Of a DNA stretch of 64,000 bases, positions 5,308 to 63,568 are shown one piece after another. The stretch spans positions 1 through 64,000 of IMG/VR virus record IMGVR_UViG_3300031088_000737, one strand, 5' to 3'. Position 1 is the stretch's first letter. Every line of letters begins with the position of its first letter. The notes under the pieces are model-generated. The model had not been told where the DNA came from, made no database searches, and saw nothing but the letters and a program-made list of their open reading frames with translations. Origin of the DNA: a virus. Position numbers and translations under genes: made by a program.

Positions 5308-6576
5308 TTATGGCGTCAATCTGTCTGGATCTCGTGGGACAAAGCTAACTTCTTTTACTGAACCTAATCCCAACAGTTTTGCAATCACTCGTTCAATCCC
5401 TAATCCAAATCCGCCATGTGGTGGGCAACCATATTTGAAACTGTCCAAATAATGATGTATGGATTCTGGTTGGATTCCTTTTTCTATGGCTTGTTGTTCT
5501 AAGATGTCAATTCTATGTTCACGAATAGCACCAGTCGTTATTTCAATACCTTTGAATATCAAGTCAAAACTCTTGGTTGTTCCTTTTTCAGTTTCTCTCA
5601 TATGATAGAATGGACGCTTACCTATCGGATAGTCTGAAATAAATATCAAGTCTTTACCTAATTTTTCATACAACAATCTTTCACCTTCATCTGGTAGGTC
5701 TTGTCCAACAGAGAGTTTCAACTCATCAGCTAAGATTTCTTTGGCTTCGGCTAAGGTCATATATTGAACAGTAGGCTTCGTCATCAATTCTATTCCATAG
5801 AGTTCCATAACTTTTTCTTTGAAAGGTTCCAACTTTGAAAACGCATAGGTTAAGATCTCTTCTTCAAGCTTCATCACATCTGCTGTTTCAAAGCACCATG
5901 CAAACTCAACATCAAATCCAGTAAACTCTGTCAGGTGTCTGGTTGAGTGTGATTCTTCTGCACGGAAGACTGGTCCGATTTCAAATATTGCTTCTAATCC
6001 ACTGGCAATTGAGCATTGCTTGTAAAACTGCGGGCTTTGGCTTAAATAAGCCTTTTTATCAAAGTATTTCACCTCAAAAACTTGTGAACCACTCTCACTT
6101 GCTTGGGCCATCAGTTTAGGTGTATGAATTTCAGTAAACTCACGTTGTAACAAGTATTCCCTGCAGCCCGCTTCAAAAGCAGAACGCAATTGCAACATGA
6201 GTTGTCGTTTAGGGTGTTTTAAGTCTACCACTCGGTAGTCAAAACGAAGGTCAATGGATGAGTCTTCCATGATTGGACGGGGTAACGCTTTGGAATGGAT
6301 AACAATAGAATCAACTTGCATTTCTACACCAAAGGTTTTACTTTGTTTGGCTTCCACAATCAACCCAGTTGCAGAAAATGTCGAACCTTCTAAAAGCTCT
6401 GATATTTCTTGATGTTGTTCAACTTTCGACTTCTGAACCACCAGTTGTAGTTTACCTGATTTGTCTCCACCGATTAAGAATTGCAGATGTTTCTGGTCAC
6501 GAAGTGCTTCCAGTGTTAAATGCATGGTAATGGTTTGACCAATGTAGCTTGTAATTTCACTTGTTTTAATTTTCAT
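5308..6576 (-). CDS. aspS: archaeal-type aspartyl-tRNA synthetase (AspRS2-like, probably non-discriminating Asp/Asn)
   Basis: OB anticodon domain, EIHTPKL motif 1, YLSQSPQFYKQ, FRAEESHSTRHLTEF motif 2, GCPPHGGFGLGIER motif 3; 422 aa, lacks the bacterial GAD insertion. Confidence 0.95.
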   Translation of the reverse strand: MKIKTSEITSYIGQTITMHLTLEALRDQKHLQFLIGGDKSGKLQLVVQKSKVEQHQEISELLEGSTFSATGLIVEAKQSKTFGVEMQVDSIVIHSKALPRPIMEDSSIDLRFDYRVVDLKHPKRQLMLQLRSAFEAGCREYLLQREFTEIHTPKLMAQASESGSQVFEVKYFDKKAYLSQSPQFYKQCSIASGLEAIFEIGPVFRAEESHSTRHLTEFTGFDVEFAWCFETADVMKLEEEILTYAFSKLEPFKEKVMELYGIELMTKPTVQYMTLAEAKEILADELKLSVGQDLPDEGERLLYEKLGKDLIFISDYPIGKRPFYHMRETEKGTTKSFDLIFKGIEITTGAIREHRIDILEQQAIEKGIQPESIHHYLDSFKYGCPPHGGFGLGIERVIAKLLGLGSVKEVSFVPRDPDRLTP

Positions 6577-6627
6577 GATGAATCTCCGTTAGTTAAGTTA
6601 GGTTTAGCATTGTTAAAATTAGGGCAC

Positions 6628-6655
6628 AAAAAAAGGCACTCTCGTGAGTGCCTTT
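6628..6655 (-). terminator. attenuator terminator in aspS leader
   Basis: minus strand AAAGGCACTC-ACGA-GAGTGCC-TTTTTTT, upstream of the aspS start. Confidence 0.9.
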
Positions 6656-6674
6656 GTTATCTTCGACTGTTTCT

Positions 6675-6746
6675 TTACGCCACAGATAATCCGACACTCA
6701 ATTGTGCAAAATTATCATTATTGTCAGCGATAAAACGAATAGTCAT
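6675..6746 (-). CDS. aspS leader peptide MTIRFIADNNDNFAQLSVGLSVA (Asp/Asn control codons)
   Basis: 23-aa ORF not in the ORF track; SD AGAGGA at 6759-6754; five consecutive Asp/Asn codons; overlaps the antiterminator strand. Confidence 0.85.
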   Translation of the reverse strand: MTIRFIADNNDNFAQLSVGLSVA

Positions 6747-61611: not shown

Positions 61612-62073
61612 CTATTCATCTGTTTCTTCTTCAATAGTTTCAAGAACTTCTTCGATAAAGAATGTTAAATCATTAATCAATTCTGTTTTATAGTTATCAT
61701 CTTCTATATTGACAATATTATAGATAGATACAATAAATGAGACAAAGAACGGTTCTTGTTGTTCATATTGATTTATCTCTAATGATGTTTGAGCATTAAA
61801 AATATCATTAACATTTTTATCAATATATGGTTTTAAAGCTTTAAAACTGCTGGTTATCTGTGTAATGGTTGTTACACCTTCAAAATCATTAATTTCGCAT
61901 AGTTCGTATAATTTGTTGAGATAGATATCTAATGCTTCATCAATTTTTTCAACACTGTTGTTTTTTATGAATGCTATCATGCCTTTTCGAAGTCTGTCTG
62001 CATCTTTGGAATCAATGTCACCAATTTTGTAATTTTTAACTTTTTTGATTAGTAGTTCTTTAAGATTGAGCAT
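61612..62073 (-). CDS. hypothetical protein
   Basis: GAGG SD; 153 aa. Confidence 0.7.
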   Translation of the reverse strand: MLNLKELLIKKVKNYKIGDIDSKDADRLRKGMIAFIKNNSVEKIDEALDIYLNKLYELCEINDFEGVTTITQITSSFKALKPYIDKNVNDIFNAQTSLEINQYEQQEPFFVSFIVSIYNIVNIEDDNYKTELINDLTFFIEEVLETIEEETDE

Positions 62074-62168: not shown

Positions 62169-62197
62169 TTGCTAAATTCAAAAAAATAACGTATAAT
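62169..62197 (+). promoter_or_regulatory. sigma70-like promoter of the proS leader
   Basis: TTGCTA-17-TATAAT. Confidence 0.75.
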
Positions 62198-62222
62198 TTA
62201 AAAATACATAGGAAAATACAAA

Positions 62223-62285
62223 ATGAAAACTAATATTGCATTATTCAAAACTATTCGACCTCTACCGCTCATGTTGGGCGTCTAA
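62223..62285 (+). CDS. proS leader peptide MKTNIALFKTIRPLPLMLGV (Pro control codons)
   Basis: 20-aa ORF not in the ORF track; AGGA SD at 62210; CCT and CCG codons just before the antiterminator strand TTGGGCGT. Confidence 0.7.
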   Translation: MKTNIALFKTIRPLPLMLGV

Positions 62286-62312
62286 GACTCTATTTACTTT
62301 TAAATTGACCTT

Positions 62313-62335
62313 AACGCCCAATATGGGCGTTTTTT
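62313..62335 (+). terminator. attenuator terminator in proS leader
   Basis: AACGCCCA-ATA-TGGGCGTT-TTTT, 60 nt before the proS ATG. Confidence 0.85.
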
Positions 62336-62395
62336 ATTGCTCAAAATAAACTATTACAACACAATAAAATAAATCAATTTAAGAGGATACACATC

Positions 62396-63526
62396 ATGAA
62401 ATTTTCAAACATATTTTTTAACAACAGTTCATTCGCTAAAGATAACCAATCATTGAACTTGGTAGACTTAACTAAAAAAGCGTGCTTCTTTAACCAAGAC
62501 TCATCTGGCATTTACTCCACTTTGTCACTGGGCTATATCTTAGAGAAGAAGATAGAACGAATCATCGAAGATGAGTTATCAGAGATAGGCTTTTCACAAA
62601 TGCGTTTAAGTTTAATTCAAGACGCTGATTTATGGAAAGAAACAGGTCGATATGACCAATACGGTGAAGAATTATTCAAATTGAAAAATAGGGCTGGCAA
62701 AGAGCTTGTTTTGAGTGCTACATGTGAAGAATCCATCACTAACATTGTGAAGTCTTACTACAATTTCACGAAAACAAATTTGAAGATGTTTCAAATTGGT
62801 AATAAATACAGAGATGAGTTAAGAGCTAAATCTGGTTTAGTGCGTGGTCGTGAGTTTTTAATGTCAGATGCTTATCATTTCTCTAATAGCAAAGAGAATA
62901 TTGTGACGACTTACAATGAAGTGAAAGAAGCCTATATCAGAATATTTACACGTTTAGGATTAGAATTTCATATTCAAGGTTCTGATGTTGGTGAGATGGG
63001 TGGTATAGCCTCAGAAGAGTTCCGTTGTATCAGTGAGTTTGGTGAGGATATCGGTGAAGATGGTAGCAAAAACCTTGAAATAGGACACATCTTTAACTTG
63101 GGCACTCACTACTCTAAAAAAATGGGCTTATTGGATAATATCAAACAACATGTGAATATGGCATGCTTTGGTATTGGTGTATCCAGAACATTGATGGCTT
63201 TATTAGAAAAACAACGTGATGAAAAAGGTTTCTTTGGCACTGCAGCTTTCAATACCTTTGATTACATTATAACGGCTATTGATTATGAGAAGAATAAAGA
63301 AGTCGCTGATGGTCTTTATCAATCATTAAAGAAACAAGGTTATTCAGTCTTGTTAGATGATAGAAATGTTTCTGCTGGCAATAAGTTCAATGACAGTGAA
63401 TTGATTGGTGTTAGCAATCGCATTATTGTCAGTAACAAGAGTATTGTTAACAATCAATATGAAGTGTTGAACAGAGAAACAAACACGGCGAAAACGGTCA
63501 GTATTGAAGAATTACAACAATTGTAA
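62396..63526 (+). CDS. proS: minimal prolyl-tRNA synthetase without INS editing domain
   Basis: LWKETGRY..YGEEL, TCEE, FQIGNKYRDE...RGREFLMSDAY, EIGHIF.LG, MACFGIGVSR, anticodon domain LLDDR...G.KF.DSELIG. Confidence 0.93.
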   Translation: MKFSNIFFNNSSFAKDNQSLNLVDLTKKACFFNQDSSGIYSTLSLGYILEKKIERIIEDELSEIGFSQMRLSLIQDADLWKETGRYDQYGEELFKLKNRAGKELVLSATCEESITNIVKSYYNFTKTNLKMFQIGNKYRDELRAKSGLVRGREFLMSDAYHFSNSKENIVTTYNEVKEAYIRIFTRLGLEFHIQGSDVGEMGGIASEEFRCISEFGEDIGEDGSKNLEIGHIFNLGTHYSKKMGLLDNIKQHVNMACFGIGVSRTLMALLEKQRDEKGFFGTAAFNTFDYIITAIDYEKNKEVADGLYQSLKKQGYSVLLDDRNVSAGNKFNDSELIGVSNRIIVSNKSIVNNQYEVLNRETNTAKTVSIEELQQL

Positions 63527-63547
63527 TAACCATGTATAGAGACAACG

Positions 63548-63568
63548 AAACCGCCTAGGCGGTTTTTT
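63548..63568. terminator. bidirectional intrinsic terminator
   Basis: AAACCGCC-TA-GGCGGTTTTTT. Confidence 0.7.

Follow-up and report, generated by a model that had tools for sequence, protein, structure and literature searches.

Sequence and folding analysis of the DNA upstream of a prolyl-tRNA synthetase gene (proS) indicated that the locus is probably a ribosome-mediated transcription attenuator of the trpL/pheM type controlling an accessory copy of this gene, a reading to which we assign a probability of roughly three in four. The window, meaning the whole 64,000-nucleotide stretch that was analysed, is the first 64 kb of the 181-kb record IMGVR_UViG_3300031088_000737 (31% GC), which carries the IMG/VR label provirus. 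An original prediction, made from the sequence, had placed a promoter, a Shine-Dalgarno sequence, a leader open reading frame (ORF) at 62223-62285 and a terminator at this locus, and all of them were found exactly there. The elements of the locus are as follows.

62169-62197, plus strand: sigma-70-type promoter, with -35 TTGCTA (62169-62174), a 17-nt spacer and -10 TATAAT (62192-62197); 10 of 12 matches
62210-62213, plus strand: Shine-Dalgarno sequence of the leader, AGGA, 9 nt 5' of the ATG
62223-62285, plus strand: leader ORF, 20 codons and a stop; a homologous ORF precedes 25 distinct proS homologues
62256-62261, plus strand: sensing site predicted from masked folds, CGA-CCT (Arg12-Pro13); the Pro is invariant and the CGA is present in 19 of 25 leaders
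62265-62267, plus strand: second Pro codon, CCG, overlapping region 1 and not in the sensing position
62266-62271, plus strand: region 1, the 5' arm of the protector hairpin 1:2 (6 bp, -6.6 kcal/mol)
62275-62281, plus strand: region 2, partner of region 1 or of region 3 (antiterminator)
62289-62308, plus strand: small spacer hairpin that folds between regions 2 and 3; a spacer hairpin is found in relatives too
62313-62335, plus strand: intrinsic terminator, made of region 3 (62313-62320) and region 4 (62324-62331) and then a U-run
62383-62386, plus strand: Shine-Dalgarno sequence of proS, GAGG, read from the sequence
62396-63526, plus strand: proS, encoding a bacterial-type prolyl-tRNA synthetase (ProRS) without the INS editing domain, 376 aa, with zero proline
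63547-63566, plus strand: terminator closing the proS transcript, a bidirectional hairpin found by terminator search

The terminator hairpin ahead of proS (62313-62331) has 8 bp, five of them GC pairs, a 3-nt loop and then six T, and lies 65 nt 5' of the proS ATG; five terminator-like sites were observed in 3 kb, compared with 0.9 expected. An 8-bp complementarity between 62274-62281 and the 5' arm of the terminator at 62314-62321 had been claimed, and it is exact, but the pairing proved to be longer than that, a 16-bp antiterminator duplex of 62266-62281 with 62314-62329 that includes two G-U pairs. This duplex is the minimum-free-energy fold of the leader (z = -5.85 relative to shuffles). 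In folds of the transcript ahead of the synthesis of region 3, hairpin 1:2 formed between 62266-62271 and 62275-62280. As region 1 can pair with region 2 before region 3 exists, the leader has the four segments of a classical attenuator, and the mutually exclusive pairings 1:2, 2:3 and 3:4 are all present in the window.

These elements could in principle be a chance short ORF beside an insulating terminator, with no regulation and with a separate promoter, located past the terminator, driving proS. Promoter-like matches in the region are no commoner than in shuffled sequence, which makes the promoter alone weak evidence and lends this reading some support, but no second promoter-like site was found between 62198 and proS, and the gene upstream of the leader (61612-62073) points the other way and needs no terminator at this place. 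Relatives L085, L087 and L088 have a promoter-like site at the equivalent position. The ORF, its length, its Pro codon and the three pairings are kept in relatives whose leaders are otherwise unrelated, and we regard the absence of regulation as very improbable.

Relatives of the locus came from Logan and JGI metagenomes; 30 proS loci were fetched and 330 nt upstream of each were inspected. Conservation of the leader ORF before homologous proS genes had been named in the original prediction as a point on which it could fail. The ORF and the paired segments occur before proS at every locus with enough upstream DNA, giving 25 distinct leaders of 14-34 codons, the proS homologues of which share 42-94% protein identity and come from AT-rich as well as 62%-GC hosts. 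A 26th leader, L113, is outside this set and keeps the CGA-CCT motif and matching stems in a frame without an ATG. In the leaders of close relatives, AGGA or AAGGAAA is found at the same spacing as in the window. An anchor Pro codon is present in all 25 leaders, always as codon 10-13 (CCT in 17, CCA in six, CCC in two), and the codon before it specifies Arg in 20 and is CGA in 19, the GC-rich clade included. The N-terminal parts of the leader peptides, upstream of this Arg-Pro, are mutually unrelated. Pro accounts for 13.3% of all leader codons compared with 2.56% in the proteins of the element. Most relatives have a stop codon in the loop of hairpin 1:2. It has been lost from the window leader and from those of the two closest relatives, and the ORFs of these three are three codons (nine bases) longer. 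The window leader stops at 62283-62285, its frame passing through region 2.

Support for the three pairings was also found across the relatives. In a covariance-model alignment of 13 leaders, canonical pairs filled 72 of 78 cells for 1:2, 68 of 78 for 2:3 and 78 of 78 for 3:4, counts obtained after minus-strand matches to the near-palindromic hairpins had been filtered by hand and with L104 and L113 still off-register in the terminator columns. MAFFT misaligned L085 and L104, the most divergent of the close leaders. The core GCC/GGC is nearly constant in the close clade, where covariation is confined to the outer pairs. In remote leaders the four segments have changed in concert (CGCC/GGCG, GCCAUCU/AGGUGGC, UGGCCU/AGGCCA and UCUCACCU/AGGUGAGA), and this concerted replacement is stronger structural evidence, as far as comparison of sequences goes, than the covariation within the close clade.

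The effect of a ribosome at different codons was modelled by folding each leader with pairing forbidden as far as 11 nt past the first base of the codon in the A site. When the first Pro codon occupied this site, the antiterminator was the minimum-free-energy structure in 11 of 12 close leaders and beat the terminator-enforced fold by 0.9 to 5.9 kcal/mol; when the second Pro codon or the stop occupied it, the close leaders folded into the terminator. For the window, the probability of the terminator was 0.00-0.12 for a ribosome at the first Pro codon (CCT, 62259-62261) and 3' edges of the mask from +10 to +14, 0.58-0.91 for one at the second Pro codon, and 0.92 for one at the stop. The complement to the terminator begins 15 nt past the first base of the first Pro codon, which agrees with the geometry that had been proposed for a stalled ribosome, and in the masked folds region 2 is left free. 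A clear switch was not obtained in the masked folds for L092, L100, L103, L106 and the GC-rich clade.

Two Pro control codons had been predicted in the window leader, which reads Pro-Leu-Pro and has no adjacent Pro codons. Both codons are present, but only the first is predicted to sense: the second is part of region 1, where a stalled ribosome would be expected to cause termination, and this leaves one Pro codon in the sensing position. The sensing window is thus likely, to judge from these folds, to be essentially the CGA-CCT pair. For this ORF alone, two non-adjacent Pro codons in 20 are not a significant excess (P = 0.08 by chance).

The mechanism we propose would work as follows. Transcription would start at the 62169-62197 promoter and the 20-codon leader would be translated. 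When Pro-tRNA is plentiful, the ribosome would reach the stop and cover regions 1 and 2, the 3:4 terminator would fold, and transcription would end at the U-run before proS. When Pro-tRNA is scarce, the ribosome would wait with the first Pro codon in its A site, covering region 1 and leaving region 2 free to pair with region 3; no terminator would form and RNA polymerase would enter proS. The enzyme could be translated even without Pro-tRNA, since it contains no proline, and would then restore charging. In this scheme leader translation, the stall and the response to Pro-tRNA are what we infer from the sequence elements, the exclusive pairings, their conservation and the Pro-free enzyme family. 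Attenuation by sensing of Pro-tRNA, as originally predicted, is supported at this level by the invariant Pro codon, the conserved leaders and the geometry of the folds.

Without a mask, the window leader at equilibrium is entirely in the 16-bp antiterminator (terminator probability 0.00). It follows that termination requires either a ribosome or the kinetic trapping of hairpin 1:2, and it is uncertain which state the leader adopts by default. A free leader that folds wholly as antiterminator would also suit a general sensor of translation coupling with no amino-acid specificity, in which a shortage of ribosomes or poor translation of the leader would allow formation of the 16-bp duplex and hence read-through, a ribosome that efficiently reached the stop would cause termination, and Pro would be incidental to C-rich stems. 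The second Pro codon of the window leader and the Pro codons of a related leader before ileS (described below) do lie in stems, where CCN supplies a C-rich strand in an AT-rich genome. The anchor Pro codon, however, is 5' of region 1 and outside the stems, and is nevertheless found in 25 of 25 leaders and spelled with three synonymous codons, while its distance to region 2 is fixed at 17-18 nt in the 12 close-clade leaders. Such a sensor would also not account for the cognate codons of their own in the other leaders of the element, nor for a Pro-free ProRS, which is sensible only if proline decoding is limiting. We consider it improbable, and read the leader as a sensor of Pro-tRNA.

[quoted passage not shown] By analogy, CGA may act as a sensitiser of the Pro codon, slowing A-site decoding through an I:A wobble in the P site such that a single Pro codon would suffice as the sensor; this extrapolates from CGA-CCG in yeast to CCU in bacteria. 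A stall at the CGA itself would mask region 1 as well, so that the leader could co-sense Arg. This idea was ranked below the sensitiser as the enzyme is not Arg-poor (16 Arg).

The Arg-Pro pair raises another candidate signal, slow peptide-bond chemistry or nascent-peptide arrest, in which Arg-Pro, or Pro-Pro in many relatives, would stall the ribosome at low EF-P or in the presence of a ligand or antibiotic. Adjacent Pro codons, which form EF-P-dependent pause motifs, are indeed found in the leaders of many relatives (R-P-P, P-P-I, K-P-P), Arg-Pro occurs in 20 of the 25, and the Salmonella leader mgtP responds to EF-P levels also (PMC5021804). The window leader, however, has no adjacent Pro codons, and in a hisL reporter the closely similar, non-consecutive R-P-A-P gave no intrinsic pause, while R-P-P-P did (PMC8129111), which is compatible with a leader on which ribosomes pause only during a shortage of Pro-tRNA. 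A Pro-free protein would need no EF-P, but the same holds for Pro-tRNA, and an arrest sensor leaves both proS as the target and its avoidance of proline unexplained. We judge this signal still less probable than the coupling sensor, and Pro-tRNA remains the preferred one.

The enzyme itself points in the same direction. The ProRS matches TIGR00409 with 338.1 bits (cut-off 306.7) and contains PF00587 and PF03129. The TIGR00409 match is split into two stretches, residues 1-218 aligning with profile positions 1-219 and then a C-terminal part, as the enzyme has no INS editing domain, which would lie between motifs 2 and 3; PF04073 was not matched, unlike in full-length hits. About 95 clusters of proteins 370-385 aa long make up the family of this enzyme. 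Nearly all are from metagenome assemblies, and the columns of motifs 2 and 3 are invariant in the family, indicating from sequence that the short ProRS is probably active. INS-less ProRS are represented by that of Rhodopseudomonas palustris (PDB 2i4l), which shares the class II core and anticodon-binding domain and also lacks the editing insertion; the window enzyme is shorter (376 aa compared with 458 aa in the chain) and is proline-free.

Proline is the only amino acid missing from the window ProRS, and among the record's 164 ORFs of 150 aa or more no other is without it. The same is true of 92 of 94 family representatives, including those at loci of 57-62% GC, while full-length ProRS have 16-21 Pro each. 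The window enzyme has other residues at 13 sites where three or all four of the full-length bacterial ProRS compared have Pro. Amino-acid biosynthetic enzymes are known to show a partial "cognate bias", containing less of their own amino acid (PMC4209129). Here the depletion is total (0 Pro here, and 0 Ile and 0 Asn in two further enzymes of the record), it affects tRNA synthetases, and it reaches residues that are conserved in the four full-length bacterial ProRS. A literature search found no paper on synthetases wholly lacking their cognate residue. The Pro-free ProRS is independent evidence, at the level of sequence, for the proposed purpose of the switch, as are the Ile-free IleRS and the Asn-free AspRS.

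Both of these enzymes are encoded behind leaders with cognate codons, for which a search of the rest of the record had been suggested. In addition to the proS leader, the 181-kb record holds four more of the same design, before aspS, ileS, a tRNA-Leu array and a tRNA-Ala/Arg array, with codons matching the gene behind each. The aspS leader has a run of Asp/Asn codons and precedes a non-discriminating AspRS (window 5308-6746, minus strand), AspRS(Asn), which has 422 aa with 0 Asn (background 7.3%) and 20 Asp; the lack of Asn in particular would suit an enzyme of the Asp-tRNA(Asn) route. At G000:C1:113758-116445 (minus strand), ileS is preceded by a terminator and, ahead of that, by a leader of 20 codons in which Ile is specified four times in succession; its 841-aa product, the IleRS, has 0 Ile (background 8.3%). 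The ileS leader also contains two Pro codons. A Leu-rich leader, in which CGA immediately precedes the first Leu codon, lies before eleven tRNA-Leu genes. A leader of 13 codons, among them AGA twice and GCN twice, is followed at G000:C1:155791-158247 by a terminator and then by an array of tRNA-Ala, tRNA-Arg and tRNA-Met. The five leaders, together with the absence of the cognate residue from three enzymes, fit the proposal that each synthetase is regulated by its cognate charged tRNA. Also encoded in the record (G000:C1:120594-121437, minus strand) is a 280-aa PilS-like pilin ORF without Arg; it has no upstream leader ORF and is probably unrelated to the pattern seen in the synthetases.

Four of the five leader peptides contain Thr-Ile-Arg, the background frequency of which is 1.6e-4 per position, at these sites.

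Window 62250-62258, plus strand: Thr-Ile-Arg
Window 6743-6735, minus strand: Thr-Ile-Arg
G000:C1:79831-79823, minus strand: Thr-Ile-Arg
G000:C1:155806-155814: Thr-Ile-Arg

The tripeptide had been noted shortly before the control codons of both the proS and aspS leaders. It is present in both, but in aspS it does not adjoin the control codons; it adjoins them in three leaders and is missing from the ileS leader. The codons used for Thr-Ile-Arg vary from leader to leader, so the constraint looks to be at the level of the peptide.

The nature of the element that carries these leaders was approached through gene content and sequence searches. Ten large window ORFs (in 7155-40600) were searched in PHROGs and no phage hallmark was found among them, and phage identity was not assigned despite the provirus label. 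In blastn searches of the locus against phage and plasmid collections there were zero matches, and two scans of viral contigs found no relative. Relatives of the element are on contigs of up to 1.3 Mb, L088 being an ENA contig of 1.33 Mb, and the majority of called genes on these large contigs have no recorded Pfam match.

No Rfam family reached its gathering threshold in the window. The best leader match was Phe_leader (window 62222-62337; 15.3 bits compared with a cut-off of 55, E = 5.2), which reflects common architecture only. The match spans precisely the leader from its ATG to the U-run. A T-box was rejected, as there was no Rfam match and the leader is short, at about 115 nt.

Attenuation by leader peptides is a textbook mechanism, known almost only from the amino-acid operons of cultured bacteria. 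Known attenuators have two or more tandem control codons, and the single Pro codon at the sensing position of the proS leader counts against the reading preferred here. Attenuators before aminoacyl-tRNA synthetase genes include pheST, and trpS and leuS have been predicted to have them, in Streptomyces (PMC1262725). The proS leader shares with pheM-pheST of E. coli and with trpS/leuS a short ORF with cognate codons, the 1:2/2:3/3:4 switch and an intrinsic terminator before a synthetase gene. Unlike pheM, it would sense Pro, and would do so through a single codon at the sensing position where pheM has a run; it has no sequence relationship to Phe_leader, and the enzyme behind it is an accessory, editing-less copy, carried by a mobile element and free of the amino acid that it charges.

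In the trpL layout, two control codons lie about 17-20 nt 5' of region 2 and the stop adjoins region 2. The proS leader resembles this layout, but the window ORF runs through region 2, and the window antiterminator is far stabler than hairpin 1:2 and the terminator together.

Sensing of Pro-tRNA by leader ORFs with Pro codons is known from mgtP (mgtCBR) and mgtL (mgtA) of Salmonella (PMC3641672). There, as proposed here, Pro codons that are slow to be read at low charged tRNA-Pro change the leader RNA and allow transcription to continue. The Pro codons of the mgt leaders number three in a row or four, and the genes under their control serve Mg2+ transport and virulence, whereas the window Pro codons are non-adjacent, the output is ProRS, giving direct feedback, and the leader ends in a plain intrinsic terminator; the two kinds of leader are not homologous in sequence. 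Literature searches found no description of a comparable leader ahead of proS.

Taken as a unit, leader and enzyme could form a bootstrapping module, a single-codon sensor with a slow CGA-CCN pair joined to an enzyme that would restart translation from zero Pro-tRNA. A bank of such modules, comprising the Pro, Ile and Asp/Asn synthetases and the Leu and Ala/Arg tRNA arrays, might then serve as a rescue kit against attacks that eliminate one charged tRNA, for example by host or competitor toxins acting on tRNAs or synthetases. We offer this only tentatively, at slightly less than even odds. The Pro-, Ile- and Asn-free synthetases seem built for production when their own charged tRNA is missing, a pattern suggesting that the elements face, or cause, complete uncharging or destruction of one tRNA species. 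Attenuation would here be a reusable module, coupled to spare components of the translation machinery on mobile elements that are giant and for the most part uncharacterised. Natural, active-looking class I and class II synthetases without one of the twenty amino acids are also relevant to work on reduced alphabets and cell-free translation.

Several remote leaders differ from the window in ways that may affect control. In L106, L107, L111 and L115 the leader ATG is 7-10 nt past the -10 box, and these upstream ORFs are possibly leaderless. In L107 (1844-2000) and L111 (1826-2000) the 3:4 helix also pairs the Shine-Dalgarno sequence of proS, and L111 has no U-run; control at these two loci may involve translation besides termination. 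The layout of L115 is different again, with a region 1 able to pair with two copies of region 2.

Among GTDB genomes there was a single close relative, L003, with 48% identity. This locus (NZ_JAQQEG010000019.1:115923-122053) belongs to the cultured strain Paraburkholderia dipogonis RL18-106-BIC-C and has a 31-codon leader with four Pro codons. In addition to the short Pro-free copy, P. dipogonis encodes a separate 578-aa ProRS with 31 Pro, and the coexistence of this normal enzyme indicates that the short one is an accessory copy. A cultured carrier of the Pro-free short ProRS is a possible experimental system and makes the idea testable.
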